From a virus, in the IMG/VR virus record IMGVR_UViG_3300006903_000012: DNA of 64,000 bases; one strand, given 5' to 3'. The notes below the pieces were generated by a model. The model was not told where the DNA came from. It ran no database searches and saw only the letters and a program-made list of their open reading frames with translations. The translations under genes and the position numbers were made by a program. This document shows positions 8,024 through 26,894 of this stretch, piece after piece. The number at the start of each line of letters is the position of its first letter. Position 1 is the first letter of the stretch.

Positions 8024-8041
8024 ACCCCCATTACTTGAACG
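8024..8041 (-). CDS. major capsid protein, exon 5 (18-nt microexon)
   Basis: CGUUCAAGUAAUGGGGGU lies between the 3' end of one intron and the P1 of the next. It keeps the reading frame (..G-V-VQVMG-V-K..) and resembles the end of exon 4 (CAACUUGAUGGGGU). Confidence 0.45.
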
Positions 8042-10270: not shown

Positions 10271-10283
10271 ATCTCAGTTGGAT
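10271..10283 (-). CDS. major capsid protein, exon 3 (13-nt microexon; alternative solution 10271..10293)
   Basis: AUCCAACUGAGAU lies between the 3' end of the intron above (..CCGAUUG) and the P1 of the intron below. Two splice-site pairings keep the frame: ..TAQ-Y-PTE-I-LTL.. or ..TAQYP-QPIDPTE-I-LTL.. Confidence 0.35.
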
Positions 10284-10491
10284 CAATCGGTTGCTTTGTT
10301 ATCTATATCTTCACATTCGATATAGGTCAGACTATCTCATCACCCACGTTTGTGGGGCTTCCCTCTTAGTCGTTACACATTGCCCGACTGCAGTTAGCAA
10401 TCTGCTTAGCTCGGTGTTGGCATCACAGCGTTCACCGAATTCGAGAAGTTTTATATCAGTTAATTACTTAACTGTACCCCCAACCGAGGGT
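10284..10491 (-). mobile_element. compact ORF-less group I intron (type 1) in the capsid gene
   Basis: About 200 nt. P1 is CCCAAU|..GUUGGG (alternatively ACCCU|..GGGGU). P2 is CAGUUAAGUAAUUAACUG. The P4/P5 block is gctcggtgttggcatcacagcgttcaccgaattcgag (10409-10445). R is tagtcgttacac (10367-10378), P8 is CCCACAAACGUGGG and S is gtcagactatctc (10326-10345). The 3' tail is GAUAACAAAG. Confidence 0.65.
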
Positions 10492-10532
10492 ATTGGGCCG
10501 TAAAATCGGTTGGCGTCACATACGGTTGTGGA
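10492..10532 (-). CDS. major capsid protein, exon 2 (41-46 nt)
   Basis: (L)PQPYVTPTDFTAQ(Y) begins right after the ..UAACAAAAUG 3' end of the upstream intron. The 3' boundary is 10492 or 10487, depending on which P1 is used. Confidence 0.4.
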
Positions 10533-11021
10533 CATTTTGTTACTTAGGAAGTGATTCTATAAATTCATCTATTGTTGCGAACTCTGTGTAGCGTCCATTG
10601 ATTATATCTTCGTCTACTTTGGCTTCTTTCTGTTGCCATTCCTTTGTCCAAAACCATTGCTGATCTAACAAAGAACTTGCTAACAACAGACTAGTCCAGA
10701 TACTGACAAGTCGTCCGTTTGATTTCCTCAAAGCTATATAATCAAACAAGAAGACCCTTGGAACCTGAAGCAATCGACCAAACCAAGAACGTCGCTTCAA
10801 TGGATAAACCATAACTTATCTCCTAAGGATCAATCATTTCTGTTGATCTCTTACACTTCTAATTTGTGCAAGTTCAGACTATCTCTTCGTCTTGAAAGAC
10901 GCTATCCGTATAGTCGTTACACATTTAGTTAATTGATTAACTTTTAGCTCGGGATTAGCGTCGCAGCCTTCCCCGAATTAGGATAGATCGCATAAATAAA
11001 TCTTATGCCCCTCACTATTGA
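10533..11021 (-). mobile_element. group I intron (type 1) in the capsid gene, with a 90-aa ORF near its 3' end
   Basis: P1 is CCU|UCA-AUAG-UGAGGG with a U.G pair at 11022. P2 is GCAUAAGAUUUAUUUAUGC. The P4/P5 block is agctcgggattagcgtcgcagccttccccgaatta (10944-10980). R is tagtcgttacac (10911-10922) and S is gttcagactatctc (10872-10885). The ORF runs 10812 -> 10540, and the 3' end is GUAACAAAAUG at 10533. Confidence 0.65.
10540..10812 (-). CDS. intron-encoded protein of unknown function (no nuclease motif seen)
   Basis: ATG preceded by AGGAGAUAAGUU. 90 aa, MVYPLKRRSWFGRLL...WTKEWQQKEAKVDEDIINGRYTEFATIDEFIESLPK. It lies between the S element and the predicted 3' splice site. Confidence 0.5.
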   Translation of the reverse strand: MVYPLKRRSWFGRLLQVPRVFLFDYIALRKSNGRLVSIWTSLLLASSLLDQQWFWTKEWQQKEAKVDEDIINGRYTEFATIDEFIESLPK

Positions 11022-11296
11022 AGGATCACCGGATCCGTCGCCTTTGTCACCAACCCGCCATCCAACCCTTTGGATTTCAAAATATGCTCTGTCATAGACT
11101 TCACGAGCAACGGATCAGCTTCGAAACCCTGGGCATTCAAATTCTTCAAAACTTGTTTCGTAATTTCGTCAGCGCCGTATGGATCATTCAGATTCACACC
11201 AGCGCTTTTTGCAAACAGACGAGCCGCATCATTGGCCGACATACCAGCCACCGGCAACACTTGCGGCACCGTCAACATATTATCAAAAGCATCCAT
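11022..11296 (-). CDS. major capsid protein, exon 1
   Basis: ATG at 11296, 20 nt after the scaffold gene stop. MDAFDNMLTVPQVLPVAGMS...GLVTKATDPVI. The track ORF stop at 11015 falls inside the P1 loop of the first intron. Confidence 0.6.
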
Positions 11297-11316
11297 GTTA
11301 CAAAAATTCCCTAAAC

Positions 11317-12888
11317 TTAATATCTGGGACCCGACACTGTCGATTGCGCTAATTCAGAAGCGCGAAATTTCTTGATCGGCACCTGATCGCCACTTAACGC
11401 TGGAAATGATAAATCACCAGCTTGTGGAGCTGATTGAGTCGGAGTATCTGGCCGAAGCATTCCCAACGACTTACGCTGGGGACCTTTTCGACTAGATACT
11501 GACTCAACTTCTTTTTCGGTCAAGGCTTTGATTAGCGTTTCTACTTTTGCTTCCAAACCAGCTGTCTGCGACTTGTATCGAGCTTCTACCTGCTCAACCG
11601 CATGTGTTACCGCGGCCTGCACCGTCGCAGTTAAATCTACCTGACTCGGTTCTGTCGTTTGGTTAATAAAATCAACTACTGCTGGCACGAACTCATTCAG
11701 AGACTTCTGCATAAGTTCGCGTTTTTCCAGCCGACTGTAATTACCACTATCTAATGTCTGCAAAAATGAGTCGGACCATTTTTGCAGAAATGCCTCAGCC
11801 GGAGATATGGTTGCGGACTTAACATCGGCATTTGCTTGCGTCCGAACCTTGACATCTGTATCGACTGGCGTTGTTGATTTCTTTTTTGCAGCCTTGACTG
11901 GAGTCGGTGGCTGCATCGCTTGCTTTTTCGCATCATCGGTCGGTTGTTTAGAAAACATTAGCCGACCTTCTTCTGCTTCATCTTCGGGTGTTTCAGCGGC
12001 GTCCACTTCCGGATCTTCCATTGCCTCTTCTTGCTGTTGGTCAATTTGCGGATGTTGATTGATCTGTTCTTCCGGAATAGGGGCTGGATTGCCACCTACT
12101 TTTTGCATCGGTTGGGGCGCTGGATTCATATCAGTTGCCGCTGCTTGACCTTCAGCGGTAATTCCACCGTCTGGAGTTGCAGCTAATGAATGAGCATAAT
12201 CCCGCACAGCACTAACCAAATTAGCAGCATGTGCCAAAAGTTCACCTTTATTTCCCATTCCCGGCGACGCTAGTGCTTTCTGCACTGATTCCAAGGCAAC
12301 TATCGCATCGGCCACTAATTCATCTTCAACATCTGATTTTCTATAAGAAACTTCAGGCGAGGCTTCAACTGACATATCATCCGAATTAGTTTCATCTTCA
12401 GACATCTCAACGTCTTCAGTCCCATCAACTTCAGAATGAGTATGTTGTTTCTTAGCCTTATGTTTCTCAACTTCATCATCTGGTGCTGACTCATGTCCTT
12501 CATCTACATCTTGCTCAGTTTCATCAGTCAACTCATCCGTCGGCTCGTCTTCAGCATCAATGACATCCGGATTCGGCTGCAATTCATCTAAATCTTCACC
12601 ACTATAGTTCTGAGTATCGGCCTGCATCTCTTCTGGCAACACACTCATTGTACCATTAGCTGTTGCTTTACCAACCATCTTGCCACATTCCGGACAATCA
12701 ACATCTTCACTGGAAAACGAAGTCTTGCAGTTCGGGCATTCTCGCATGTGCGACTTTATAACTAATTCTGTTTCCGTATTCGATTTTCCAACTCTCTTTG
12801 ATAAATCTTTCTGAACTAATTTCTGTGCCAGCACCGGATTATTCAAAACGGCCCTAGCGTCGTCTTGCTTTGTTTTAATTTGTCCCAT
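11317..12888 (-). CDS. scaffolding-like protein (very acidic, with a zinc ribbon)
   Basis: 523 aa, located between the protease and capsid genes. It has long D/E-rich tracts, a CPNCKTSF..CPECG ribbon and a coiled C-terminal part. Confidence 0.5.
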   Translation of the reverse strand: MGQIKTKQDDARAVLNNPVLAQKLVQKDLSKRVGKSNTETELVIKSHMRECPNCKTSFSSEDVDCPECGKMVGKATANGTMSVLPEEMQADTQNYSGEDLDELQPNPDVIDAEDEPTDELTDETEQDVDEGHESAPDDEVEKHKAKKQHTHSEVDGTEDVEMSEDETNSDDMSVEASPEVSYRKSDVEDELVADAIVALESVQKALASPGMGNKGELLAHAANLVSAVRDYAHSLAATPDGGITAEGQAAATDMNPAPQPMQKVGGNPAPIPEEQINQHPQIDQQQEEAMEDPEVDAAETPEDEAEEGRLMFSKQPTDDAKKQAMQPPTPVKAAKKKSTTPVDTDVKVRTQANADVKSATISPAEAFLQKWSDSFLQTLDSGNYSRLEKRELMQKSLNEFVPAVVDFINQTTEPSQVDLTATVQAAVTHAVEQVEARYKSQTAGLEAKVETLIKALTEKEVESVSSRKGPQRKSLGMLRPDTPTQSAPQAGDLSFPALSGDQVPIKKFRASELAQSTVSGPRY

Positions 12889-12895
12889 CTAACAC

Positions 12896-15800
12896 CTAAG
12901 AAACTGACACTAGTGTTTCGGCCACAACCGGCACTCTGGTAAACGCAAAATGTTCGATCCAGCCCCTCAGAAAATCACGCTGATTACTGGACTTCTTAAT
13001 TACACCATCTGAATCGGGATAAAATCCCATTGAAATTCTAATACAATCTTCATGCGGAATTTTATTTTGAATGTCTGATTTGACTTCTTGATACAACTGC
13101 CGACCTAATGCTGTCGGAAAAAAGATACCCCGTGCTTTTGGTTGCCGACCGTCTATCCAAATGTCAGTTGCGATCCCAGCGCTCAATCGTTCAGTTCCAC
13201 ATTTAGGACATAGATAATCAGTTAACGATTTGAACTCATAACCGCAGTCACAATCATAGAGAGAATAATGCGCGACACTGGCAAACGGCGGCGGAACTGT
13301 TTTTGATTTGAACCGTCGAATGGCTTCTTCATAAAATGCTTTAGTAACTTTATCGCCTTCAATATCTCTATCGAATTTGGTGGTAGTGGCTTCCCACTCC
13401 ATCATCCCATCATCTTTTATGCGAGCTTTTGTAATTCGCCACTCAGTTCGGAAAACATCAGAACTAAAAGAGATGGGAACTAAAGTTTGTGACTTTTTAA
13501 CTTGTGCGTCTGAAAAATCATCTAAGATTTTATCTGCCAGTTTAGAGTTAAGGGCATAATAATTTTTCAAATGTTTTTTAGCTTCCGAAATACTATCTTT
13601 ATCTGAGCTATCTCGAGATAGATGTGACCAAACATCACCAACAATTGCAGTCCCATAACGATCAACAAGTTTCGAAAGCATCTTATTAGAAGCTACATCT
13701 GAGTTATATCTACGTCTGGCATTATTATTTGTTGATCCTGAAAGAGTTGGCGCAACCTTTTGAAAAGCATTCTGATTTCCGGTGCCCTCTCCAACTCCAA
13801 TAACATGCTCACCAGGCAAAGAATTACTATGACCATGTGTACTTTGGTCATGCTTGCCTGGGAGATGTTTCTGTTCACCACCACTCTTCTCTTCTGCATC
13901 TGCTCGCCAAGCATCTAAACATTCATACTCTTTTGGATTCTTATTCGGTTGGAATCCATCTCGTGCCTTCTCAAACGCATCGGCCGCTTGTGAATATTTA
14001 CCAGCGTGATAAGCATTCCACCCTTGCGCAATCCATTTACCTGAATAGTATTTGTAATATTCTGACCAGATAGCTTTCAAGCAGCTTTGATCGGCCTTGG
14101 AAATAAGCGACTTACCTACCTTATCCAAAAGAACATCTTGATAATCGGCAATTTGTTCGCCCAAATTCTCAATGCCTTGCGACAACCTAGTTCTGGCTGT
14201 GGGATCTTTTGTTGAAGACAGATCTTCTTTTGCTCGAGCACGCTGTTGTTGAGCTAAATCGATTCTAGAATGTAACTCGGAAGTAGATAACTTGTTAAGT
14301 ATCTTTTGGTCTCGCTGTCTTTCATCGGCAGTACGGTTTGATAGAACTTTTCTTGTTGTCGGAACCTTCGCCCCGCCTCCTACCTTCTTCTTCGCCGCTG
14401 CAATGCTAGTATCATTATCTTTGGCATATTGTCGAGCCGCCGCATCGCGCAGTTGAGCAGATGTATGCGCAACTTTCCCACTGGCGCCTTTGATGCCAGC
14501 ATGACTCGACTGGTCGTGTTGTCCAGGGAGATGTTTTTCTTCCAATATATGTCGACTTGCCGCTAAATATGCTTTTAGCGACTTAAAATCTGAACCTTTG
14601 CCACGACCATAAATATCAAGTCCTTTTGAACTATGATGCTCCCACTTGCCAGAATCAGCAATATATATAGAATGTTCCAACTGATTACGTCCGTTACCCG
14701 TAGTGGACTCATATAGATCTACACCTCGTATAGGCAACGGATTATATTTAAATCCGTGTTCACTTAGCATCTTAGTAAATTCAGGTGACCGCGGAGTTCT
14801 GGTTCGACCATGACTGCTTTGGTCATGTTTACCCGGCAAATGCTTCTGCTTACTCTCATGTATCTCATTATACTTCTTGTGAACCTCAGGAATTTTATGA
14901 TCTTCTGAACCATCGTCTGCCAGTTGACCGATCTCCCGCAACTCATCTTGATAAAGAAATCGGTGGTAACCTTTTGGAAGTAGTGACTTTGTTTCTTCAT
15001 CAGTCTCGAATTCAATATCATCCAATGCAGAAGTAGCTAATTCGATTACATTCCGCCAAGCATCCCGTTCAGCTGACGTATAGTTATAAATCTTCCTAGG
15101 TTTATCAAGCTCTCTCGACAAGGCAGAAACCGCGGAATTAATGTCATGCTGTGTCTCTGGAGTAAGGTCTTCGATCTCACTGGACTGTCGTAACTGTCTC
15201 AACAAGTCTCGACCAGCACCTCGTCCGGCCCTGGTTCCCGGTCCGAACTTTTTCAGATCAGACAGATGTGACTGACCATAACCAGCATGACTTTGTTGGT
15301 CATGTTTACCCGGCAAGTGTTTCTCAACTGCCGCCACAAACAAACTCTTCTGTAACAAATAATTCTGTCGCGCTTTTTCGACTTCATTATGCGGTTGATA
15401 CTCATGCCCGCATTTTGAGCATTTATGAGTTCCGCGTCCAATATGTGGATCTTCAACTGTACTACCGCATTTAGGACAAGCGGCAGTTGGGAAATGTTTC
15501 TCAGTCATTGATTTCTTGTATTGCTGATTCGAGAAGATATTATCACTTATAAATCGATCCACTTGTAAATTAGCATCATCAAAATCACCACGATCATAAT
15601 CTACACTTTTCCAATCGAAATTATCTCTGTCTCCATTAGAAACAAAAAACTCTGCTAATACAGTTCTGCCAGAATCGGGCAAAGCCGGTATAGTATCAGC
15701 AACATAATTCAACTTAACATCATTTGACATCTGATTTATCCAAACATCAGCTGCTTGTTTTTTTGATTTCGCACGTCCACTGCGTACTAAGTCTGATGTT

Positions 15801-16216
15801 ATTTGTGACTCAAAACTTTTAACAAGTTCCTTTGCTGCACTTGTCACATCGGCATCAGATGCTTTATATGGATCAGGTCTCTTTTGTCTCATCTTCCCGG
15901 CATGTGTTCCTTGATCGTGCTTGCCGGGAAAGTGCTTTTCCGATAACGATTTCTGATTCTGCTTAGCAACAAATGCTAACAATTCATCAGGATCAATTTC
16001 TATTTCTCCGCCACCGAAATTATGTGCGCCAAGATGCGCTTCTGGAATCGATTTCTCGTGCTTGAAATACTCGACTTCAGCCAGACGCTTTGTGGCCCAG
16101 TCTTTACTAGGTCCGCAACCTAGATTTCTTTTTCCGTCTTCACTAACCACACACCACTGATTGCCTTTTTTCTTAATCCGCTTTTCAACCAACTCGCTGA
16201 TTACAAAGTCGGCCAT
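12896..16216 (-). CDS. large virion polyprotein with C-terminal HK97-type prohead protease domain
   Basis: 1106 aa with five copies of KH(L/F)PG(K/Q)HDQ..H(A)G. The C-terminal 200 or so aa (about 12896-13500) read FDRDIEGDKVTKAFYEEAI..ASVAHYS..RISMGFYP..HFAFTRVPVVAETLV, which resembles S78/U35 prohead proteases, with an inserted CDCG..CPKCG ribbon. Confidence 0.65.
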   Translation of the reverse strand: MADFVISELVEKRIKKKGNQWCVVSEDGKRNLGCGPSKDWATKRLAEVEYFKHEKSIPEAHLGAHNFGGGEIEIDPDELLAFVAKQNQKSLSEKHFPGKHDQGTHAGKMRQKRPDPYKASDADVTSAAKELVKSFESQITSDLVRSGRAKSKKQAADVWINQMSNDVKLNYVADTIPALPDSGRTVLAEFFVSNGDRDNFDWKSVDYDRGDFDDANLQVDRFISDNIFSNQQYKKSMTEKHFPTAACPKCGSTVEDPHIGRGTHKCSKCGHEYQPHNEVEKARQNYLLQKSLFVAAVEKHLPGKHDQQSHAGYGQSHLSDLKKFGPGTRAGRGAGRDLLRQLRQSSEIEDLTPETQHDINSAVSALSRELDKPRKIYNYTSAERDAWRNVIELATSALDDIEFETDEETKSLLPKGYHRFLYQDELREIGQLADDGSEDHKIPEVHKKYNEIHESKQKHLPGKHDQSSHGRTRTPRSPEFTKMLSEHGFKYNPLPIRGVDLYESTTGNGRNQLEHSIYIADSGKWEHHSSKGLDIYGRGKGSDFKSLKAYLAASRHILEEKHLPGQHDQSSHAGIKGASGKVAHTSAQLRDAAARQYAKDNDTSIAAAKKKVGGGAKVPTTRKVLSNRTADERQRDQKILNKLSTSELHSRIDLAQQQRARAKEDLSSTKDPTARTRLSQGIENLGEQIADYQDVLLDKVGKSLISKADQSCLKAIWSEYYKYYSGKWIAQGWNAYHAGKYSQAADAFEKARDGFQPNKNPKEYECLDAWRADAEEKSGGEQKHLPGKHDQSTHGHSNSLPGEHVIGVGEGTGNQNAFQKVAPTLSGSTNNNARRRYNSDVASNKMLSKLVDRYGTAIVGDVWSHLSRDSSDKDSISEAKKHLKNYYALNSKLADKILDDFSDAQVKKSQTLVPISFSSDVFRTEWRITKARIKDDGMMEWEATTTKFDRDIEGDKVTKAFYEEAIRRFKSKTVPPPFASVAHYSLYDCDCGYEFKSLTDYLCPKCGTERLSAGIATDIWIDGRQPKARGIFFPTALGRQLYQEVKSDIQNKIPHEDCIRISMGFYPDSDGVIKKSSNQRDFLRGWIEHFAFTRVPVVAETLVSVS

Positions 16217-19200
16217 GTTTTGTCATCCTCAATTCGTCCTAAAATTTCATAATGTTGCCGACCTACTGGCCGAGCTTGAATTTTTTGCAGCCAATTTTCT
16301 AAGGCTTGATTTGAATTGAACGCCATCACATCTGTTATTTTTGTAACCGGATCGCCAGCGTTATCAACTTCTTCTTTGACACGCACCGTTCGTCCGTCTA
16401 TTTGTAAATTCTTCAGTCGCTTTAATTTCTCAAAATTTCCACGATTGAAGAAATTCAAATCCGGCGGGCGTCCATCATCTGGATCATGTACACCAGAATA
16501 ACCAGTGCCAGTATAGAACGCTTTCTGCTCTAGCTCAGAATATTTAGAATCATATTCATCCATCCACATTCTCAAAGACAGATGATTAATACTATTAACA
16601 TGAACACTTTGATCTGGTAAATCTACATCATCAAAATAAAAATAACCTTTGCCTTTAACAAGTTCTGTTTTCGTCCTGCCCGTAACCTTCAGTGCTCGAT
16701 TAACTTGAGCAACTGTTTTAGGAGTTTTACTGAAATCCATTCCTGATTCTTTTTCCAAATTTCCTGCATGAGTCTTCTGATCGTGTTTGCCAGCTTGGTG
16801 TTTAACTAAAATCTCATACCCATCTTTTTGTAACTGTCGCGCCGCTTGTTTCAACTCACCTTCAACAATAAGACTCTTAACAACTATTGGCAACTCATCA
16901 TCGAAATCATATTTCCCATTATTACTCTTTACGACTGATCGAACTAATGCCGGCATCTCAGGTTTGTAATATTCAAACCCATAATGCAGCACCATGTCTA
17001 AAAAGTCTTCATAGTAACGCTTCAAGTTCTCGTCATTGACCGATTGTAGATCTTCTGTCTTAGCCCGGTCTTTGATAAACTGCTCAAATTCTTTTCGATA
17101 TTGTCCGGGGATTTTTTCAGCATAGCTATCAAATCCCAAAAGTGATTTTTCAGTCTTGGAATTACCAAAAAGATAAAACTCTTTTTCATTTCCCAGATAC
17201 AACCACACCCCAAACACATCCCATGTTACTGCTAATTCTTTCTCAGCCCCCATTGAAGTTAACTGGTTATCTGAAACTGTTACATGGGGTTTATATCCGC
17301 CCGCTTCCCACGTTCGATCTGGTGCCTGCCCATTCGACAACAAACCCGCCACCAAATCATCATGTAGATGTTTTAGGGCGGGTGTGATTTTGACTTCTGC
17401 CACAGACACTTCTTGCAGGGTTATTATAGTGCCGGTCAGGTTGAGTGTCAAGGATTTTTGATCGTATTCAGAACACACTTTTTCGATAGTTTTTCTTATC
17501 GCCAGTGAGTCAAAATACCGATCCATTTTTCCTAAGTAAACTAGTGTGATATGTGGCTCAGACTTTTTGAAATCTAACAGGTTAACTATCTCATTCGGGA
17601 CCGATAGAGCAATCATACAGGTATCATCATGCTCAGCTTTTTCTTCAACTATCTTCGACCCTTTGATTCCCTTAGCTCCAAAAATCTTGGCTCGGCCCGC
17701 TCGGATATCATCTATCGGCAAATCACCTACATCCACCAAAGCCGCTTCAACATACTCATCGGCATCGGTGCCCCATACAATTCCTGCATAAGCATAATTG
17801 CCGCCGAGCACATCTATCTCACTGTCACTAATTACCGGCACCAGACTATATTGTTGTAGATAATGCTGCGCATCGGCTACACTATCAAACCGAGACCGCT
17901 TACCAATTTGATCGGGCTGACCCCATGAATTCATGGGAAGAGATTTTTCTTTAATGGTTGTGCGATATGTTTTGTCGCCTTCTGGATCCTTCCAATCTGA
18001 AACAACCTTAACCTTTGTATTGCCTGGAACACCGAAATACTCAAGTCCACTCAAAGCTGATTTTAGATTCTGATAGGCCCGATCTTCATTATTTCCAGCT
18101 CCCATCTGACCAAAGGCTGAACCGATCCACGGATCACCTCCCTCGGTATCTACTAGAACAAGCCGAACTGCTCGATTAAATGCCGCCTGTGATAACTCGG
18201 CACTATATGCAAGCTCATGGTGACTTGTATCATTCTCAATCTGGCGACCCGCATACCACTTTCCATCTACTTTAATTAATAAAAGATTGAGATGTTTCTT
18301 AATTTCAGACTTTGTCGGGTGCCAGAACTTGTCTCGTTGATAGCTCCCGGGACCAAGCTCTGAGTAATATGACACACTGGGTTTACTAAATTTGTGCTCA
18401 ACCGCAGGTTTACCAATATCTTCTGGCACAGGAGTAGAAGAAAGAGCGCCGGCATGCTTTTTCTGATTATGCTTTCCCGGTTGGTGTTTCTCAACTGCTT
18501 TCTTATTTTCAGCAATAATTCGTTGCGTCTCTTGTTCCAGAATTTCTTTCAGCTTCGCATTCGACTCATCACCGTTCCAATAATGTCCGCCATCTTTCAA
18601 AAAGTCTTCGAATTCTTTTGGGTTCGACTGCAAGTTGCAATGGCAAGTCATGGGATGCGCCGGTGGATGTTGTGTTGTCTCACCGTCGAACACCGTTTCA
18701 TACTCAAAGTCTAAAGGCACAAATCCTTGCTCTTCATTTTGAGTACAAATATCACACACATCGTACCCACGCGTGATCCAACCTTTAGTCTTCAATCCCA
18801 CTGCTGTCATTTGATCTAGAGTCGCCCGAGAATCAGCCCAATTCAATTCCGTATTTACAATTGAACGAATGCGCGACTCACTTAACTTACCAGCATCTTT
18901 CTTAAATTTCAAACCAAAAAGATTCGCCTGGATATAATCGACAATTTCTTCGCTGCTCAAACCATTATCATAACCAGTCAAAATATTTTGCCGAAGGAAA
19001 TATTTTGTTCCACTATCGACATGCTGAACTAATGTGGCTGCTCGTGCATCTAACAGATCAATCACCGACGGATTAGTCAGAATGAACTGAAATTCTTTTG
19101 GTAACGTCAGTCGATCAGCCAAACCCGCTTCAAACATTTGCTGCTGAATATCTTGAACAGCCGTCAGAGAGCCTTCAGAATATGCTTGCCGCAAAATATC

Positions 19201-21270
19201 TAACAACTGATCTTGAATATCAGGCAGACAATACCAATCTTGCTCATTTAGAATATCGTCGAGTTTTTCAGATGCGGTAATTTCCGCTTTTTCTATTAAA
19301 TCAATTTTAGATTTTTCTTCATGGTTAATATTCCATTCCCAGATCTTTCCAGTTTTTGTTTCAGATATGATCTTACCCCCAAGAGCTTCGTTCATTGAAT
19401 TTGGCCGAATATTACCATGCTCAACATAAGCTCTAACAGAGTTAATACCCGACGATGCAAGTAACTTAAATATAGCATTTGCTGTTTCTTTTCCAAATCC
19501 AGAACCAGAACGTGACGAATCTATTCGATTGAAGTAGGCATAATCACGATCATTATTGGGTAACTCTACTGTTGCAGTTACTACTATATCATCTTTAGGA
19601 AGTGCATTTTCTAACCAATTTTCTTTTCTTAACCTATCGTTTATTTTAGCATCAAAGAAGAGCCTGTCGCCGGATTGAGTAACAGTTATGTCTAACCTAT
19701 CTGTGTGAATTTTACTGGGAATATTATCTTTTTTACCATACTCACCAGCATGTGATTCTTGATCGTGCTTGCCGGGGAGGTGTTTTTGTATTTCGTTATC
19801 TAACTCAACCAAACTTTTATACTCTTCAAGCGGCGCAACTAATTCTTCCAAATGCTCAATAGTTAACTGATTACCGACTTGCTTAAAAGACTCTTGCAGT
19901 AATTTGCTAAACTTCTTAACTGTCTCACTTGAGTTTCTTAATTGCTTGCCGTCCGCTAACAAATCTTCCGCCAGCGATTTAGCATATTGTTGCATCTCGC
20001 TGTAAGCACTGTCTATTTGATCGAGAGCTTCAGGTTTGTTAGCATCTTCTTGCAGGCCACCGATCGCTTCAGTATCTTGATCGATAGAATCCAGACTATC
20101 ACTAGGGAAACTATCCATACCTTCAAGCCCCGGAGCCGCTGGTAACCCGCTTGTTTTCACGTCAATAATTTTCCACGCCTCAGCTTGTTTCTGAGCATCA
20201 ATCGGTTTCAAGATCGGTTGATTACCAGTCAAAGTCATTAGCATCGTTGCACGTTTACCAGCCAGATCTGCTTGCACACTCGTCTCGCCGGTCATATCAA
20301 TTTTGAACTTGAACTTGAACCCAGATGCAGTCGACATCAGAATCTTTGTATTAATGAGATCCTCGACTAATTGAGCATAGAAACCAGTGCCCGCTCGCGA
20401 CGATACTTTTGAAGACGCTTCCACACCCGCCAATGTACGATCATGCTCAAAGATTCGCAAATCGCCAATTGACAATCCAAACGCAGCACACACCATTTCA
20501 GCAAAACGTTTGAAATTCTCAATCATATTCACATCAGCCGGCGAAAGAGTTAATGGAATAAATCTCGCCGGCTTTGTGTGATCGTACAACAGTGGCATTT
20601 TCATGGGATCAATGTCATTCCACATTTCGCGGAAACCTGTTGCCCATGCGATTGCTTCTGCTTCAGACATATCCATAACATCCAAAATCCCAGCCATCGG
20701 TGTGTTACCCAATTGCTTGAGATAATAAAGATAGATGCGCGAGAGAGCTTCAATCGATAAAAATGCACTTTCAACTGGCGCTTCTTGAAATACTTTGCGA
20801 GTCAAATCAGTTCGTGGTTGAGTAATCAAACGAATCACATCGCCACGACCAAAATAAACTCGATCTAATCCATTATAGGGATTGATCTGTACAAACGGAA
20901 TGTCGCGATCATAGGTGGGGTATAATGTTTCACCATCAATATGATAGAGACCACCAATGATTCCGTCCATTTCAGGATTCGCCACAACTTCAGCATTTCC
21001 CGCAATGGGGAGAATTAGAGCATCTTGCAGCATGCGCGACAACCATACGTCCCAACCATCACCATCATCTGCATCCGCCAGAACTTTCTCGAGATACATT
21101 TTCATCTCGCCTTGTTCTTCTGGCTTATCACTAACTATTTCCCATTCCAAAGATACAAGTTCGCGCAAGATATGCCGAATACAAAGCTTTGTAATCGGCT
21201 CCGTCGCAACTTGATACTTCCACTGAGCTACCGACAAGCGAGTTGGGTTAGCTAAATAAAGCGGTTGCAA
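16201..21270 (-). CDS. portal protein fused to GNAT-like, MuF/SPP1 gp7-like and 2H phosphoesterase-like domains (main exon)
   Basis: 1689 codons. The N-terminus has a portal-like LSVAQWKYQVATEPITKLCIRHILRELVSLEWEIV. A GNAT-like RSGSGFG..N..MNEALGG lies at about 19330-19700. A MuF-like NTELNW..CDIC..HPMTCHCNL lies at about 18630-19200. 2H motifs PHITLVY (17521-17553) and KPHVTVS (about 17270) are present. There are three His-rich motifs. The track start is TTG with no RBS, consistent with a 3' exon. Confidence 0.75.
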   Translation of the reverse strand: MQPLYLANPTRLSVAQWKYQVATEPITKLCIRHILRELVSLEWEIVSDKPEEQGEMKMYLEKVLADADDGDGWDVWLSRMLQDALILPIAGNAEVVANPEMDGIIGGLYHIDGETLYPTYDRDIPFVQINPYNGLDRVYFGRGDVIRLITQPRTDLTRKVFQEAPVESAFLSIEALSRIYLYYLKQLGNTPMAGILDVMDMSEAEAIAWATGFREMWNDIDPMKMPLLYDHTKPARFIPLTLSPADVNMIENFKRFAEMVCAAFGLSIGDLRIFEHDRTLAGVEASSKVSSRAGTGFYAQLVEDLINTKILMSTASGFKFKFKIDMTGETSVQADLAGKRATMLMTLTGNQPILKPIDAQKQAEAWKIIDVKTSGLPAAPGLEGMDSFPSDSLDSIDQDTEAIGGLQEDANKPEALDQIDSAYSEMQQYAKSLAEDLLADGKQLRNSSETVKKFSKLLQESFKQVGNQLTIEHLEELVAPLEEYKSLVELDNEIQKHLPGKHDQESHAGEYGKKDNIPSKIHTDRLDITVTQSGDRLFFDAKINDRLRKENWLENALPKDDIVVTATVELPNNDRDYAYFNRIDSSRSGSGFGKETANAIFKLLASSGINSVRAYVEHGNIRPNSMNEALGGKIISETKTGKIWEWNINHEEKSKIDLIEKAEITASEKLDDILNEQDWYCLPDIQDQLLDILRQAYSEGSLTAVQDIQQQMFEAGLADRLTLPKEFQFILTNPSVIDLLDARAATLVQHVDSGTKYFLRQNILTGYDNGLSSEEIVDYIQANLFGLKFKKDAGKLSESRIRSIVNTELNWADSRATLDQMTAVGLKTKGWITRGYDVCDICTQNEEQGFVPLDFEYETVFDGETTQHPPAHPMTCHCNLQSNPKEFEDFLKDGGHYWNGDESNAKLKEILEQETQRIIAENKKAVEKHQPGKHNQKKHAGALSSTPVPEDIGKPAVEHKFSKPSVSYYSELGPGSYQRDKFWHPTKSEIKKHLNLLLIKVDGKWYAGRQIENDTSHHELAYSAELSQAAFNRAVRLVLVDTEGGDPWIGSAFGQMGAGNNEDRAYQNLKSALSGLEYFGVPGNTKVKVVSDWKDPEGDKTYRTTIKEKSLPMNSWGQPDQIGKRSRFDSVADAQHYLQQYSLVPVISDSEIDVLGGNYAYAGIVWGTDADEYVEAALVDVGDLPIDDIRAGRAKIFGAKGIKGSKIVEEKAEHDDTCMIALSVPNEIVNLLDFKKSEPHITLVYLGKMDRYFDSLAIRKTIEKVCSEYDQKSLTLNLTGTIITLQEVSVAEVKITPALKHLHDDLVAGLLSNGQAPDRTWEAGGYKPHVTVSDNQLTSMGAEKELAVTWDVFGVWLYLGNEKEFYLFGNSKTEKSLLGFDSYAEKIPGQYRKEFEQFIKDRAKTEDLQSVNDENLKRYYEDFLDMVLHYGFEYYKPEMPALVRSVVKSNNGKYDFDDELPIVVKSLIVEGELKQAARQLQKDGYEILVKHQAGKHDQKTHAGNLEKESGMDFSKTPKTVAQVNRALKVTGRTKTELVKGKGYFYFDDVDLPDQSVHVNSINHLSLRMWMDEYDSKYSELEQKAFYTGTGYSGVHDPDDGRPPDLNFFNRGNFEKLKRLKNLQIDGRTVRVKEEVDNAGDPVTKITDVMAFNSNQALENWLQKIQARPVGRQHYEILGRIEDDKTWPTL

Positions 21271-21542
21271 TTTGTTACAAAGTCTTACAGACCTTTGAGT
21301 AAGTCATTTCTGCTCACTTCTTGCAATTCCTATTTCTTGCAAGTTCAGACTATATCATTATCTTTCTTCAAGATAGTTCCCACATAGTCGTTACACACTT
21401 CCGCAGATGCGGGTTGGCTCGGTATTTGGACTCTCACCATTCACCGAATTCGAGAACTGTTACAACATCCATTACTGGATGAAGCCGCCAAGTTGACGGG
21501 TTAAGTAGGGGGGCGGTTGCTGTATACTCGTCGGCGCAACCG
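21271..21542 (-). mobile_element. ORF-less group I intron (type 1) near the 5' end of the portal gene
   Basis: P1 is AAGU|CG..CGGCUU with a U.G pair. P2 is CAUCCAGUAAUGGAUG. The P4/P5 block is ggctcggtatttggactctcaccattcaccgaattcgag (21417-21455). R is tagtcgttacac (21385-21396) and S is gttcagactatatc (21343-21356). The 3' end is GUAACAAAUUG at 21271. Confidence 0.65.
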
Positions 21543-21563
21543 ACTTCTGTACAATAAGTTCAT
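21543..21563 (-). CDS. portal protein, proposed 21-nt exon 1 (MNLLYRS)
   Basis: The ATG at 21563 overlaps the TGA of the upstream endonuclease gene (AUGA). The exon ends at the U of the P1 U.G pair and joins in phase 0 to CAA CCG CUU (QPLYLANP..). This is an inference only. Confidence 0.35.
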
Positions 21564-22432
21564 CTGCCATCAATATTTCTCCTGAGAAATAATTTCTCAA
21601 CCCGAGCAACTTGCTCTTTTGTGTTCTTCAAAAGTTTTGTATCCCAAATCACAATAACCTTATACCCTGCATCTTTATATGCTTGAATTCTTTTCTTATC
21701 TCTTGGATTATCTTTCGCATGCCAGTAGACACCAAAAAGCTCAACAATTATTTTCTTATTGGTATTTACAAAATCTGGGTTAAACCTATTTACCCAAAAT
21801 GCACCGTTACCCACATATCTAAAACCAAATCGCTTTAGATATCTCATCAGAAGTTTTTCTGGTTTATTTGGACTTCTAGGTTCTAATCGTTTCTCAATAA
21901 CTGCATCTTTCTCACTATCTGACAAACCATCCCAATATTTTCTGAGTGATTTAGAAAGTTTATCTGACCTGAGTTGCTTAGCTTTCCTTGGTGTACGCAA
22001 CCAAGTTTCGGTAACAGATTGCGAAATCTTTTTAGCTATTTCTTGTTCTTCCTCGGCAGTTCGTCTTTTGTGTACTCGCTTAATCGCTTTCGACAAACTT
22101 TTACGAAATTCAGCATCACGCTCAGGAGTAAAGTTTCTTCTGGCTTCCGCTGATTTCCTACCAATTCGTTGTCTTTCTTCTATCGGTACCTTAGCATGTC
22201 TTTTCTTTTGAATCCTTGAAATTCGAGCACAAACTTCGGCAGAGTATTTATTGCCCTTGTTGGGCGATGGTCGACCCAAATTCTGGACAGACAGCAGAAA
22301 CTTAGTCTCATCACTCATCACTCGACCGTTGTGATGATTGATAAATCGTCTTCCAAAATTCGCTCGTTCACCACATCCACATAGACACAACGGTCCTTTT
22401 TTAGATTTAGACTTTTGTTTTCGGCCTGCCAT
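21560..22432 (-). CDS. homing endonuclease, Vsr/PD-(D/E)XK-like (EDxHD-type), apparently free-standing next to the portal intron
   Basis: 290 aa. The N-terminus has CLCGCG..HH and basic repeats. The C-terminus FRYVGNGAFWVNRFNPDFVNTNKKIIVELFGVYWHAKDNPRDKKRIQAYKDAGYKVIVIW is paralogous to the three capsid-intron ORFs. Confidence 0.7.
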   Translation of the reverse strand: MAGRKQKSKSKKGPLCLCGCGERANFGRRFINHHNGRVMSDETKFLLSVQNLGRPSPNKGNKYSAEVCARISRIQKKRHAKVPIEERQRIGRKSAEARRNFTPERDAEFRKSLSKAIKRVHKRRTAEEEQEIAKKISQSVTETWLRTPRKAKQLRSDKLSKSLRKYWDGLSDSEKDAVIEKRLEPRSPNKPEKLLMRYLKRFGFRYVGNGAFWVNRFNPDFVNTNKKIIVELFGVYWHAKDNPRDKKRIQAYKDAGYKVIVIWDTKLLKNTKEQVARVEKLFLRRNIDGR

Positions 22433-22461
22433 AATAGACTAATCTCTTTTCACCAATAAAT

Positions 22462-22914
22462 TTATACCGGCAGAATCGCCACAATTTTTACTCTAAATGT
22501 ATCTTCACTAATTGTCTGAGTCACGGTAAATCTAGTCCGTCGACTAGCACCCCGAAGTGTCAAGGTCGCTGAAGAAGCAAACATCGCAACCCCAGCCACA
22601 TCCCATCGCAATAAAAATTCATCATCAACCTGTGATCGGTGCACTAATTCTTTCGACCAATCTGTATAACTATATGTAATTTCTTCAGGTTCAGAGTCTT
22701 CGACAGAAACACTATGTGATCGAAATAATTTTGTAGTTGAATCGACTAACGCAGAATTTGCAGATCCAGATAAAGCTGCAAATAAGTTAGGATAATTCTT
22801 TCTAACCTGGGCCGCATGTTGACCTAAATCCATCAGCGCTTCATCATAAGCCACTTCACCCGAAAAGACTTTCTCTAAAGCTGCTAACACCGCATCTAAT
22901 TCTTTATTTGCCAT
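22462..22914 (-). CDS. hypothetical protein
   Basis: 150-aa ORF with ATG start, located between the zincin protein and the endonuclease gene. Confidence 0.5.
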   Translation of the reverse strand: MANKELDAVLAALEKVFSGEVAYDEALMDLGQHAAQVRKNYPNLFAALSGSANSALVDSTTKLFRSHSVSVEDSEPEEITYSYTDWSKELVHRSQVDDEFLLRWDVAGVAMFASSATLTLRGASRRTRFTVTQTISEDTFRVKIVAILPV

Positions 22915-22943
22915 ATAATATTTTCTCGATTCAATCTATCGTC

Positions 22944-23927
22944 TTATAAATTAGATTTCTCTTTAATAAAAAATGCCGATGCAGGAGGTGTCGGTTCGTC
23001 CGAATATCCTTCCCAATCATCGGGAGTTTTATCACTTAAAAAATTAGTTAGGAATTCTGCACGTTTTGGATATCGTTCAGAAAAATAATCAGGAAGAGTG
23101 TAAAACAATTCAACTGACGTTGCAAAATCTTCTGACAAATTAGTCTTACTTAGATGTGCAGAATGGATTTGTCTAGCGTTTTTCTTCTCACTATTGATTA
23201 CATTTTTCCAAAGCTTAGATCTGCTAAAACTTAAAGAACCCTTACTGGCACCCATTGCAGCGTCCAAATTATGTGCCAACTCGTGAATCGCTGACCGTTC
23301 ATCGGTATAATTCAAAACTGGTGGATGAGAGTCTTGTTCTTCAAGTGGACGACTCACTACGGAAAATGTCCCAGCAATTCCAGTAACAAACCCTTTCTTT
23401 CTAGAAAAAACTCTCTTCCTATATTTAGAAATTTCATTCTTTGCCCAAGACGGAAATCTTCCTAAAGCCTGCTCATAAACCGCTGCATCGTTCTCGTAAG
23501 TCGCAAAATTTCTAACCATCGAACCAGCATGCGTTTTCTGGTCATGCTGGCCGGGCAAATGCTTTCCAATACTTCCACTTGTCTCTTTCCGGCCCACTAA
23601 CATCTTCAATCGCCCCTTCGGCGTCAATAGCAACGTCCGAGTTGTACCACCTGCACTACCATTACTTGTTTCTAACTGCTCAACTAAACCTTGTCGCACT
23701 AATTCGTGAATCTCATTTTTGTGCTGCATCCAATAAACATCTGAAAGTGCGTGACCTTCAGTTTCTATTTTGTAGAGAATTTCAGATTCGAAATTAGATT
23801 GGCCGAGTTGAGATTCGTCGATATTAGACTTTTCAACAGATGCTCGTCTCTTCGGATCATGCAAAGAATGTATCTCAGTAACTAAATCAAGAACATAGTT
23901 CCCATCGCTATCAGTATAAATTTTCAT
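22944..23927 (-). CDS. virion-associated zincin-like metallopeptidase domain protein
   Basis: 327 aa. Contains the HExxH motif AIHELAHNLD (about 23268-23300) and one His-rich motif, KHLPGQHDQKTHAG (about 23545). Confidence 0.6.
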   Translation of the reverse strand: MKIYTDSDGNYVLDLVTEIHSLHDPKRRASVEKSNIDESQLGQSNFESEILYKIETEGHALSDVYWMQHKNEIHELVRQGLVEQLETSNGSAGGTTRTLLLTPKGRLKMLVGRKETSGSIGKHLPGQHDQKTHAGSMVRNFATYENDAAVYEQALGRFPSWAKNEISKYRKRVFSRKKGFVTGIAGTFSVVSRPLEEQDSHPPVLNYTDERSAIHELAHNLDAAMGASKGSLSFSRSKLWKNVINSEKKNARQIHSAHLSKTNLSEDFATSVELFYTLPDYFSERYPKRAEFLTNFLSDKTPDDWEGYSDEPTPPASAFFIKEKSNL

Positions 23928-26674
23928 TGATTAATAACCAAGTCAGCTACAAGTAACGGAGCCTTAAAACTATCTGTCCGAATAGTTGTACTTCTAACTT
24001 CTACTTTACCATTAATAATCGGTACAATCTCATGCTCATCATTGTATCCAAAATTATTAATTTTATAAGAATATAAAATAGATTCTCTAGGGACATTAAC
24101 TATAAACATTAACTTTCCTTCAGAAAAATCATGTGCTACCTCATAAGTATCTGACCAATGACCGACAGTATCTACATCAGCTAATTTTATACTTCCATTA
24201 GCAATTCTTGTAATTAATTCATCAGGAACATCTAAACCTCTATGAAGCACAACAGAGTTCTCTGGTAATGTCAGTTGTGCTGCAGCCCACATCATATCGA
24301 GACCTGGATCATTTTTTCCGGCTGTCCAAGATTTTACTCTAGATGCTAGCTCGTCGGCACTCCCCTTTTTACCATCATAAAATCTTTCTATACTGACAAA
24401 TGCAGATAGTACTGATCTATTATAGGGAGTGTTTAAAATACGATCTTTATCTGAAAAAGTAATTCCCAAATCCTCAAACCTTTTTCTGTCATCATATACA
24501 TAGTTACCCACTTTATATCCCTGCCCCACAGTATTTCTTACTGCTTTAACTCCGCCAGCCTTTTTCACAATACCAATCATTTTTCTGGCACGTTCCAACG
24601 ATTTGTTTTTAGCAATTCCACTTGGTCGCCCATGTGTTAACTGATTGTGTCTACCGGGTAAATGCTTCTTAATCTCTTCTCGCAACTTCTCTTTAGCAAG
24701 ATAATGCTTAACGACTTCATCAAGTCTAGAATCTTGCTCCAATATCTGATCTGTAGTAAAAGATTCTAACTTGCCATATCCATCATCTAATAATAGCTTT
24801 CCCTTATAACCAGCAGACTGTAAACTGGTAGCTAAACTTAAGACATCGCCTTTAGGCGGCAAATCAGATCGAATATCAAAAAGAGACATTCCGGGCTTAA
24901 ATTTCTCAGTTGAATAAATATAAATACCAGCAGATGATAATGCTATCCGCATGGCTATCATTCGACTACTGTCAGTCTGCCGCAACAAGTTTTTAGCCAG
25001 AACAATATGCTCAACTGAAGACCTGCCGGACGGAGCAAAGACCAACCGATCTTCAGTTGGCAAGTATAAACCGACGACACTGGACGAGTCGTCTTCTTCA
25101 GAATTCTCAACCTCTGACAGAACTTTATATGCCTTTGCTAATTCGTTTTTATTGGACGCTACAATATCATCCCCAGCATGAGATTGTTGATCGTGTAACC
25201 CTGCTAAATGTTTTATTTCCTGCACTTCACGGTACACTCGATCACCCGCATCAATTTGATTACGCAGTTTCGCAATTGTGAAAGCATCACGCGATTGGAG
25301 AGCCATCTTTAGTTTATCTTCCAATGAGCGTCGGCGAGATATCCAAGCCTTATGAGCACCAGAAGATGTGCCATATTTTTCAATTAGAGATTTTTCTCCA
25401 ATTGTCGTAGAATAATCGTCTTCTTCATTATTAATATCTTGAATATATACCTTCATTGATTTTGGTAAACCAAAATACTCAAGACCAGATAAAGCCGATT
25501 TTAAATTACGATACGCATCATCACTTCTAGTACTACCTAAATGATCTGAGAGCGAACTGACTACCAACTTTTCATCTGAACCTTTTACAAGCCTAAGACG
25601 AACAGATTTATCGAACTCATCAGAAGAGAGACCAATATCTGCAGCAAGATCGGCATGCATTGAAATTTTATTTTTAGTTCCTTGTATTGCTGGTTTTGCA
25701 TACCATTTCTTACCAACTTTCAGTAACAATAAGTTTGATCTCCAGAAACTATCATTTTGATAACTATCTTTCAACAAATTAGAGTAATAAATTGTCCCAT
25801 CTTTAGATTTATGTTTCTCAGCCAATGATGTAGCAATACTACTACCATCATTACCACCATGAGTTTTCTGATTATGTTTCCCCGGTTGATGCTTCTCAAA
25901 CACTATCGGATTCTCATTCTCATCAAATCCCAGCGCGATTCTAATTTGCTCAGCTAATTCGGCGGCAGCATCTTTCTTTTTCTTATCTTGGTCGGCACTG
26001 ATTATTTCGACAGGGCTAATAGGTTGGGGATATTCAGCAGCAAAATCGGGCAGATACTTGATACTCAATATCGCATCTTGTAATCTTTTGACTGCCAAAG
26101 ATTTGACCGTCGTCGTAACGACTCGGCCTGAATGCAAATCAATTTTAACAGGAGTCTCGGCAGGTATTCCAATTTGATAAAGTTTATCTAGCGCCCAATA
26201 AACTTTCTTAACTCTCGGCTCATCATCAGCTGGACCAACTATTCCTGTGCCTGAGCGATCTATAGTTATTTGACCTTTCTGATATCTAAACCGAATGCTT
26301 GTATCAAACAAATGCCTAATATCCGCATTAGCAGTTATATCAGCGTGAACAGCATCAGAATCCAGTGTTGCATAAACATTGCCGTTAGGAGTAACAATAG
26401 CTGTTACCTTTTCGTTGTCTATTTCATCATCTTGAAGATCTTTTGTAAAATCTGACCAATCATCTACTCGATAGATATTAAATCGTTTAGATCTACCATA
26501 TTTAGTTGCATCATAAATAAGTTCATTAGAACTCGAAATAATATCTTTGCTACTTCCACCCACTTCACCCTTACGACCACTATGTCCAAAGTTTCCAGAA
26601 CCGACGCCACCTTTAACAACAAGATGCCCAACATCTTGGATAATCATTTGTAATCTTTGTCTAGTGTCAAGCAT
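23924..26674 (-). CDS. polyvalent virion protein with C-terminal ADP-ribosyltransferase domain
   Basis: ATG at 26674 after AGGAG (the track start 26737 is an upstream alternative). The N-terminus has GGVGSGNFGHSGRKGEVGGS. There are three His-rich motifs. The C-terminal R-S-E triad is VVLHRG (about 24250), GHWSDT and NDEHEIVP (24020-24049). Confidence 0.65.
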   Translation of the reverse strand: MLDTRQRLQMIIQDVGHLVVKGGVGSGNFGHSGRKGEVGGSSKDIISSSNELIYDATKYGRSKRFNIYRVDDWSDFTKDLQDDEIDNEKVTAIVTPNGNVYATLDSDAVHADITANADIRHLFDTSIRFRYQKGQITIDRSGTGIVGPADDEPRVKKVYWALDKLYQIGIPAETPVKIDLHSGRVVTTTVKSLAVKRLQDAILSIKYLPDFAAEYPQPISPVEIISADQDKKKKDAAAELAEQIRIALGFDENENPIVFEKHQPGKHNQKTHGGNDGSSIATSLAEKHKSKDGTIYYSNLLKDSYQNDSFWRSNLLLLKVGKKWYAKPAIQGTKNKISMHADLAADIGLSSDEFDKSVRLRLVKGSDEKLVVSSLSDHLGSTRSDDAYRNLKSALSGLEYFGLPKSMKVYIQDINNEEDDYSTTIGEKSLIEKYGTSSGAHKAWISRRRSLEDKLKMALQSRDAFTIAKLRNQIDAGDRVYREVQEIKHLAGLHDQQSHAGDDIVASNKNELAKAYKVLSEVENSEEDDSSSVVGLYLPTEDRLVFAPSGRSSVEHIVLAKNLLRQTDSSRMIAMRIALSSAGIYIYSTEKFKPGMSLFDIRSDLPPKGDVLSLATSLQSAGYKGKLLLDDGYGKLESFTTDQILEQDSRLDEVVKHYLAKEKLREEIKKHLPGRHNQLTHGRPSGIAKNKSLERARKMIGIVKKAGGVKAVRNTVGQGYKVGNYVYDDRKRFEDLGITFSDKDRILNTPYNRSVLSAFVSIERFYDGKKGSADELASRVKSWTAGKNDPGLDMMWAAAQLTLPENSVVLHRGLDVPDELITRIANGSIKLADVDTVGHWSDTYEVAHDFSEGKLMFIVNVPRESILYSYKINNFGYNDEHEIVPIINGKVEVRSTTIRTDSFKAPLLVADLVINQ

Positions 26675-26684
26675 CTTGAAACTC

Positions 26685-26894
26685 CTAATCGTGCACTGCA
26701 CTTTCCAAAAGAATATCCGAACCGGACTCAGTAACATTAAGTGACGAAAAAGACTTGACCGGATTAGTTAACCCATTACCATCACCAATCCACACTACAA
26801 ATGGCTCGCCCGTTTCAGAATTAACTTCAGGCAGATCTTTTACTAACTCTTTCAGTCTTGCAACTGTTAATGGACTATCAAAATTTAAGATCAT
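26685..26894 (-). CDS. hypothetical protein
   Basis: 69-aa ORF with ATG start, coupled to its upstream neighbour. Confidence 0.45.
   Translation of the reverse strand: MILNFDSPLTVARLKELVKDLPEVNSETGEPFVVWIGDGNGLTNPVKSFSSLNVTESGSDILLESAVHD

Follow-up and report, generated by a model that had tools for sequence, protein, structure and literature searches.

The stretch of viral DNA analysed here, IMG/VR record IMGVR_UViG_3300006903_000012 (64,000 nucleotides; hereafter the window, meaning the whole stretch), contains a minus-strand run of large open reading frames (ORFs), labelled A to G, that spans 11.3–26.7 kb, and four of these ORFs encode a short His-rich peptide motif that is the subject of this study. 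Using a six-frame regular-expression scan together with a degenerate DNA pattern, we found 12 copies of KH.[PA]G.H[DN]Q..H in the window, all on the minus strand, where 100 dinucleotide-preserving shuffles of the window gave a chance expectation of 0.00 matches. Beyond these copies, which we refer to as HDQ tags, the loose core H[DN]Q..H is absent from every frame of the 64-kb window. Six residues of the motif (K, H, G, H, Q and H) do not vary among the 12 copies, which are distributed as five in ORF B, three in C, one in F and three in G. An earlier reading of the sequence (the original prediction) had located 12 copies here, and each of its positions is right to within ~20 nt. Its description of four consecutive carrier proteins needs amending: there are four carrier ORFs, but C is separated from F by ORFs D and E and by a group I intron. 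Its statement that the motif usually follows Glu or Gln describes 8 of the 12 copies. Separately, a Ni(II)-dependent hydrolysis motif, (S/T)-x-H, was considered and dropped, because just three of the 12 copies in the window have Ser at position +3.

The tags subdivide their carriers into domain-sized modules (we number each tag by the position of its Lys in the ORF; all were found by both the regular expression and the DNA pattern, and all lie on the minus strand). ORF B (12896–16216, minus strand, 1106 aa) has a small N-terminal domain followed by five tag-headed modules, the last of which is a putative prohead protease; its tags are at aa 94 (SEKHFPGKHDQGTHA, 15902–15937), 299 (VEKHLPGKHDQQSHA, 15287–15322), 458 (KQKHLPGKHDQSSHG, 14810–14845), 561 (EEKHLPGQHDQSSHA, 14501–14536) and 783 (EQKHLPGKHDQSTHG, 13835–13870). 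ORF C (16201–21270, minus strand, 1689 aa, TTG start) joins unrelated virion and effector domains, namely portal, MuF and 2H phosphoesterase, in one polypeptide: the portal domain (aa 30–335) is followed straight away by tag 496 (IQKHLPGKHDQESHA, 19750–19785), then a module with MuF (668–883), tag 928 (VEKHQPGKHNQKKHA, 18454–18489), a module with the 2H phosphoesterase (1234–1335), tag 1490 (LVKHQAGKHDQKTHA, 16768–16803) and a phrog_9154 module (1519–1579). ORF F (22944–23927, minus strand, 327 aa) consists of an N-terminal region, a tag at aa 122 (IGKHLPGQHDQKTHA, 23529–23564) and an M90-type zincin with the sequence HELAH (Peptidase_M90 Pfam match at aa 213–296, 23040–23291; 29.9 bits against a cutoff of 26.2). 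ORF G (23924–26737, minus strand, 937 aa, or 916 aa by the public gene call) begins with a short leader, a second type of tag described below and a module, and continues with tag 282 (FEKHQPGKHNQKTHG, 25859–25894) and a module paralogous to C 928–1111, tag 509 (EIKHLAGLHDQQSHA, 25178–25213) and a module, and tag 691 (IKKHLPGRHNQLTHG, 24632–24667) and a C-terminal module. Thus B and G each hold four to six motif-delimited modules. The carriers lie within a head-morphogenesis cluster, being fused to the portal and adjoining the scaffold-like ORF A.

To what extent is the DNA, rather than the peptide, conserved? The original prediction pointed to a repeated plus-strand DNA word. The word is present, but as a mere shadow of the peptide and not as an independent feature, its synonymous positions being randomised. 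Specifically, the conserved residues of the window copies use mixed codons (AAA/AAG 7/5, CAT/CAC 7/5 and 6/6, all four Gly codons), two window copies share a codon with a frequency of 0.46 where codon usage predicts 0.50, and the corresponding overall figures for 15 other loci are 0.50 and 0.47. Because synonymous sites are at random expectation in all 16 genomes, selection acts on the peptide and not on the DNA.

The copies within one protein also agree with each other at the variable positions beyond chance (z = 9–24 versus label shuffles). For example, the carrier P0033 has FHLQGQHDQQ in 10 of its 10 copies, and P0007 has RHNQQHHAG[DE] in six of seven. Since copies from one genome are random at their synonymous sites, these shared variants are kept by selection and not by gene conversion. 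Variants of this kind are as expected if one co-evolving partner recognises all copies in a genome.

The position of the tag follows a strict grammar, which we examined in 139 carrier ORFs from IMG/VR that are complete and non-redundant. The residues remaining after the last motif are never fewer than 68 (5th percentile, 173), and successive motifs are 133–543 aa apart. In 68 of the 139 ORFs no more than 60 aa precede the first motif when the N-terminus is taken at its longest possible extent; among the 113 ORFs with a single motif, this is true of 55, and in 34 the distance is 30 aa or less. Some carriers simply start MLIIKHLPG..., and leaders can be as short as 5–30 aa. Because the C-terminal remainder is always domain-sized and the first motif is often near the N-terminus, the motif is a prefix of a domain-sized module, neither a symmetric linker nor a C-terminal tag.

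Sequence comparison further shows that the motif and the module behind it move together. C 928–1111 and G 282–451 are 44% identical, and their alignment begins precisely at KHQPGKHNQK; at the nucleotide level these paralogous modules occupy 17791–18489 in C and 25208–25894 in G, both headed by this rare variant. Across 396 carriers, homology blocks of at least 100 aa that reach at least 40 aa to both sides of a motif make up 10.7%, compared with 47.8% for random placement, and the same test with the motifs masked gives 4% versus 41%. The motif is never inside a domain defined by a hidden Markov model (HMM), which bears out the inter-domain placement originally claimed. The motif lies in a Gly-rich stretch of ~25 residues with few hydrophobic ones; over the motif and the next ~15 residues the hydrophobic fraction is 0.05–0.22, versus 0.29 overall, and the 10 residues ahead of the motif are slightly more hydrophobic. 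Because the downstream modules belong to many unrelated families, the motif is not part of any one fold. No family in Pfam, NCBIfam or PHROG covers it, and a profile search of PDB sequences gave no match to it; the proposed check for a known folded domain was negative.

What are the modules that carry this prefix? Related loci share one gene order: portal, MuF, three to eight tagged genes, an XkdF-type serine protease (Peptidase_S78_2), an acidic scaffold, a small protein and the major capsid protein (MCP; Phage_cap_E). Of the loci that extend as far as the scaffold or MCP, 22 in number, every one includes the protease. The carrier ORFs match ADPrib_exo_Tox, Phage_Mu_F, DUF3626, ddrB-ParB, Zeta_toxin, DRAT, SprT-like, NUDIX, GNAT, portal and prohead protease families, in keeping with the similar strings that the original prediction placed in MuF-type and polyvalent phage proteins; an ADP-ribosyltransferase (ART) profile alone matches 77 of 396 carrier proteins. 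By their family matches, the modules appear to be a repertoire of virion-delivered effectors, as in phage-type polyvalent proteins. As a side observation, the scaffolds of related loci (for example L026, 2367–3182, and L046, 5389–6171) start with a conserved His-rich string, EETSGVD[HY]PAHLH[ED]GWLVMK, which faintly recalls both the tag (His, GW) and the C-terminal E-V-S-L-V-x-x-P-A of S78 proteases.

In the window itself, the domain labels of the original prediction were in part upheld: HMMs support portal, MuF, 2H phosphoesterase and M90-type zincin, while 'ART', 'GNAT' and 'protease' have no significant HMM match. The 'ART' module of G matches nothing in Pfam, PHROG or PDB, and a jackhmmer profile of the ARTs of related loci has no match in G; the 'GNAT' module likewise has no Pfam, PHROG or PDB match. 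The same three databases hold no match to the putative prohead protease domain of B (12899–13444, minus strand, aa ~925–1106). This segment is, however, 41% identical to the protein P0001, the sole homologue we found for it. In P0001 this domain precedes an acidic, scaffold-like region, and the last residues of that region (..RKAFSARELAWASTQERY) are similar to those of ORF A (..IKKFRASELAQSTVSGPRY). ORF A (11317–12888, minus strand) is itself acidic and scaffold-like and carries no motif. Given this fusion to an acidic scaffold with an ORF A-like tail, the protease assignment for the C-terminus of B is reasonable, though putative, and B and A look like a split protease–scaffold unit. HMMs also find Zn ribbons in ORF A and in B at aa 240–272. 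The putative protease has a CxC...CxxC zinc-ribbon insert (13100–13250, B aa ~990–1015) that is not in P0001. The leader of B (its first 93 aa) has a phrog_3684 match at aa 9–56 and resembles a small KKGxxWCVVS..G..LGC domain found at the N-termini of other phage proteins, and the corresponding part of P0001 is a ChaB domain (PF06150).

To learn how widespread the motif is, we ran a profile of the 12 window copies exhaustively on 1.84 billion representative proteins. This HMM search, which the original prediction had proposed, returned 629 protein clusters at E ≤ 1e-3, of which 153 also pass E ≤ 1e-10, and some proteins of 2,700–3,000 aa have as many as 10 copies each; ten profile-matched proteins that we looked up all come from metagenome assemblies. 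A back-translated pattern found the motif in at least 118 IMG/VR stretches, many with 3–10 copies in adjacent same-strand ORFs. The consensus over 516 instances reads [VIL]-x-K-H-L-[PA]-G-[QKR]-H-[DN]-Q-x-[TS]-H-[GA]-[GR], after which the sequence is rich in G, R and S, and one sub-family extends it as ...HG[SN]WAG. The three His are invariant, the Asp is replaced by Asn in 88 of the 516 copies (17%), and in roughly half of them the core has Ala or Gln instead of Pro. In bacterial and archaeal genomes the motif is nearly absent: one genome from each of 185,579 bacterial and archaeal species gave just 33 single matches, ~9 of which are expected by chance by our own calculation, and nearly all of which are out of frame in GC-rich DNA; only two, L132 and L149, both contigs of metagenome-assembled genomes, look real. 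A word-indexed protein search with the motif alignment returned nothing, and the motif strings were not found in any paper in the searchable literature. We also observed that three carriers, P0007 (2724 aa), P0011 (2237 aa) and P0014 (1799 aa), hold ~20 tags together (7 + 8 + 5; counts from the core regular expression and hmmsearch stretches). All three are recorded on contigs of identical length, 70,217 bp, and so probably come from a single metagenomic contig. If they do share one contig, a very large share of one phage genome would be tagged cargo.

ORF G carries a second Gly/His-rich motif (GGVGSGNFGHSGRKGEVGGS; KGGVGSGNFGHSGRKGEVGGS) at 26552–26614 (minus strand, aa 42–62), where the original prediction had noticed it, and this motif heads the first module of G. 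Its consensus is [KD]-G-G-P-G-S-G-N-[FW]-G-H-x-G-R-P-G-x-[VRI]-G-G-S, and we refer to it as the GNFGH-type tag. It occurs in at least 119 IMG/VR stretches (loci L161–L279, for example L209), with up to nine in one locus, obeys the same prefix grammar and directly follows the portal domain in L165 and L196. Because neither the HDQ motif nor XkdF-type head genes are found in any of 116 second-tag loci, the two types appear to belong to different phage lineages; we found both together only in this window and in L069. The GNFGH-type tag is a separate, analogous and equally widespread tag. Among GenBank phages the second motif gave nothing, probably because the low-complexity filter masked its Gly-rich sequence, and a portal plus second-tag protein had no match there either. 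Some of the uncultivated virus genomes with the second tag have numeric ids like those of isolate genomes, which suggests prophages.

Taken together, how might this motif function? Our preferred reading, which we hold tentatively and at slightly less than even confidence, is that the motif is a cargo-module tag resembling the capsid-targeting sequence (CTS) of phage T4, responsible for docking and probably for cleavage. Every module that is packed into the capsid, and probably ejected from it, would carry one tag at its N-terminal boundary, both on separate gene products (leader, tag, module) and on modules fused to portal, MuF, prohead protease or other proteins. One genome-encoded head-assembly component, most likely the prohead protease/scaffold core, would read the tag in trans; recognition would draw the module into the procapsid and would probably be coupled to cleavage at or beside the tag, as for the T4 CTS. 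Such cleavage would free portal, MuF, protease and the single effectors from each other. Packaging and cleavage are both suggested by synteny and by the prefix grammar. Because the tag is conserved on single-module proteins with leaders of only 5–30 aa, it must do more than separate domains. Cleavage, in turn, is plausible because cargo is fused to the portal (C) and to the protease (B), and because polyproteins have up to 10 tags; without it, ~1,200 extra residues would sit on each of 12 portal subunits.

The original prediction saw the motif as a processing site for the co-encoded protease or zincin, or as a metal-binding linker, and the first of these ideas is plausible but incomplete. The N-terminal tags, the untagged MCP and scaffold, the non-universal zincins and the high information content suggest that a bare cleavage site fits poorly. 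Known prohead-protease sites hold far less information than the 14–17 positions of this motif.

Several observations weigh against our reading. The motif is found in none of 16 MCPs, one of 22 scaffolds and none of 38 stand-alone portals, and ORF A of the window is without it as well; because MCP and scaffold lack it, the motif is not the protease's general cleavage specificity. The window protease has no relationship to the XkdF cluster by hhalign or HMM, so one tag would have to serve different protease families, or the partner is another component. Old duplications of tag-plus-module units could explain part of the variant sharing. An AlphaFold2 model of the motif with the protease segment, built from a two-sequence alignment, was uninformative (mean predicted local distance difference test score, 38). 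In addition, tblastn of motif peptides against GenBank phages gave only spurious 27-bit matches, and no cultured phage with the motif was found there.

One rival explanation is that the tag is for docking or cargo loading only. Like an encapsulin cargo-loading peptide, it would bind the inner capsid surface, the scaffold or the portal and stay uncut, with several tags providing multivalent anchoring; internal copies would then be a legacy of fusing already tagged genes. The untagged MCP and scaffold, the proximity of the HK97-type capsid gene Phage_cap_E, the high information content, the variants common to the copies of one genome and the retention of the motif on single-module proteins after very short leaders are all as this explanation would have them. 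What makes it, and the legacy origin of internal copies with it, unlikely in our view is the architecture of the fusions: an uncut C would burden every portal subunit as described above, an uncut B would tether the protease to five modules, and a protease is present in every complete array.

If the tag is cut, the protease could instead be one of the cargo zincins, acting on the polyproteins in the capsid or after ejection. Iyer et al. 2017 (PMC5512222) predicted this role for the metallopeptidases of polyvalent proteins, and HExxH is indeed seven-fold enriched among carriers (51 of 246 carrier ORFs, 21%, versus 22 of 743 neighbouring ORFs, 3%), the window itself having one zincin module, in ORF F. 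We nonetheless consider this explanation quite improbable: only 6 of 14 complete MuF-to-protease arrays include a zincin/HExxH module, arrays with 4–6 tags have none, the zincins are themselves tagged cargo, and the N-terminal tags on single modules are left unexplained.

A little less probable still is a metal-binding hinge, in which three His spaced five apart, with the Asp and Gln, would bind Zn, Ni or Cu to stiffen or cross-link linkers, or would bind DNA, with no partner involved. The invariant H-x4-H-x4-H and the conserved D/N and Q are what such a hinge calls for. Against this, the Asp gives way to Asn at the frequency given above, the flanking K, L, P/A and G are conserved as strongly as the putative ligands, and the GGPGSGNFGHxGRPGxVGGS tag, in the same position, has one His only. 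Genome-shared variants and the strict prefix position would also be unexpected for a generic chelating linker, and the D/N interchange and the genome-specific variants appear to fit a docking or processing tag recognised in trans better than they fit a metal-binding linker.

Two further possibilities can be dealt with briefly. The position at polyprotein junctions, the restriction to D or N after the central His and the P/A-G in the core bring to mind a self-acting separator, by analogy with Asn/Asp cyclisation at intein C-termini, here aided by the His before it, or a 2A-like 'stop-go' at P-G, but this is very improbable given that an unfolded 14-residue peptide is an unlikely catalyst, that the Pro of the core is so often replaced and that a dedicated protease is there in every case. 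Recombination at the DNA level, with the motif as a junction for module shuffling as proposed for the VENN/DPxGL regions of polymorphic toxins, would place the motif at the bounds of shuffled modules, where it is, but the random synonymous sites in 16 genomes leave no conserved DNA word, and the codon statistics essentially exclude this explanation.

The tag we propose has its closest counterpart in T4. There, the CTS of the internal proteins IPI–III and Alt, which are packaged in the head and injected, is ~10 aa long, strictly N-terminal and removed by the gp21 prohead protease, and it ends in a three-residue L/I-x-E site that is also carried by the MCP and the scaffold. Like the CTS, the HDQ tag is a short peptide common to unrelated proteins, including ARTs, and N-terminal to the functional part; the coupling of targeting to maturation cleavage would be a further likeness. 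Unlike the CTS, the HDQ tag is 14–17 aa long and His-rich, is repeated internally up to 10 times per protein, does not occur in MCP or scaffold and is found with S78/XkdF-type rather than gp21-type proteases. The packaging of Alt is mentioned in PMC5512222.

The same paper describes polyvalent proteins, in which portal, MuF, ART, 2H, ddrB-ParB, Zeta and zincin MPTase modules occur in one polypeptide within the head gene cluster, and predicts their proteolytic processing (PMC5512222). The carriers described here share this domain repertoire and head-cluster context, but no delimiter motif is described for polyvalent proteins (PMC5512222). Unlike polyvalent proteins, the same modules also occur here as separate genes, each with its own tag, and a zincin is not always present. 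We know of no study that has mapped the processing of polyvalent proteins since it was predicted in 2017.

Other systems share single features with the tag. In the giant phages phiKZ and SPN3US, many head and ejection proteins are cut during maturation at degenerate three-residue S/A/G-x-E prohead-protease sites, which are present in all substrates; these resemble the tag as a recurrent motif, whereas the tag is a long, highly specific peptide limited to the putative cargo. In encapsulins, cargo-loading peptides mostly stand at the C-terminus and are unrepeated, and their binding to the shell is proven. Like them, the HDQ motif is a short conserved peptide on diverse putative cargo enzymes whose genes lie beside an HK97-fold shell gene, and it would define a cargo set; it differs in sequence, is N-terminal to its modules and is repeated. 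Finally, in polymorphic toxins a single motif, VENN in CdiA or DPxGL in Rhs, precedes the C-terminal toxin. The HDQ motif likewise precedes variable, shuffled effector modules, but there are several motifs per protein and no conservation at the DNA level. MuF is a carrier here as it is in the MuF polymorphic toxins (PMC5576092), and that paper mentions no such motif.

ORF D (21560–22432, minus strand) encodes a homing endonuclease, and ORF E (22462–22914, minus strand) lies between D and F. Four group I introns are on the minus strand (4702–4940, 10305–10496, 10850–11031 and 21326–21505; 52–59 bits, over the Rfam gathering threshold), and the last of these sits between ORF D and the TTG start of C. 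Because of this intron upstream, the TTG is doubtful as the true N-terminus of C; the portal gene is probably split by the intron, with its true N-terminus encoded upstream and spliced on. Downstream of ORF A, at ~4700–11300 (minus strand), there is no long capsid ORF. This region has homing-endonuclease-like ORFs at 4813–5616 (HNH) and at 6449–7303, 8239–8946 and 9290–10126 (DUF559/Vsr-like), interleaved with short exon-like ORFs (11015–11296, 10540–10812) and three group I introns, and the major capsid gene of the window appears to be split into several exons.

The window, which is part of a metagenomic contig of 111.5 kb, belongs to an isolated lineage. ORFs B and C had no match among GenBank phages by megablast or tblastn, a portal scan of IMG/VR found no close relatives, a metagenome (JGI) scan with B returned just one 1.9-kb fragment, and a word-indexed protein search with ORF F returned the query alone.

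Proteins that are packed in heads and injected, such as anti-defence enzymes, ARTs, nucleases and kinases, are hard to spot from sequence. To our knowledge, the selection of injected proteins for packaging is understood mainly in T4 and the giant phages. The tag is most likely an undescribed element, widespread in uncultured tailed phages, that belongs to the known class of capsid-targeting and maturation signals. More speculatively, and by analogy, tailed phages may have cargo-loading peptides of their own, such that an HDQ or GNFGH-type tag alone would be enough to load any module into the capsid and have it delivered to the host; it is equally speculative that each tag type would be read by its own co-evolving head component. 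Genome-specific variants make the search for a partner testable by co-variation or complex prediction. Even as a cleavage site and nothing more, the motif would far exceed every known phage maturation site in specificity. If our reading is true, the tag would give a means of directing foreign proteins into phage heads, and it would supply polyvalent proteins with the delimiter they have so far lacked and with a candidate signal for processing or targeting. It would also be a sequence rule for listing every injected effector of a large group of uncultured phages, in which ~20% of the carrier proteins hold ART modules and many modules are without a known family.

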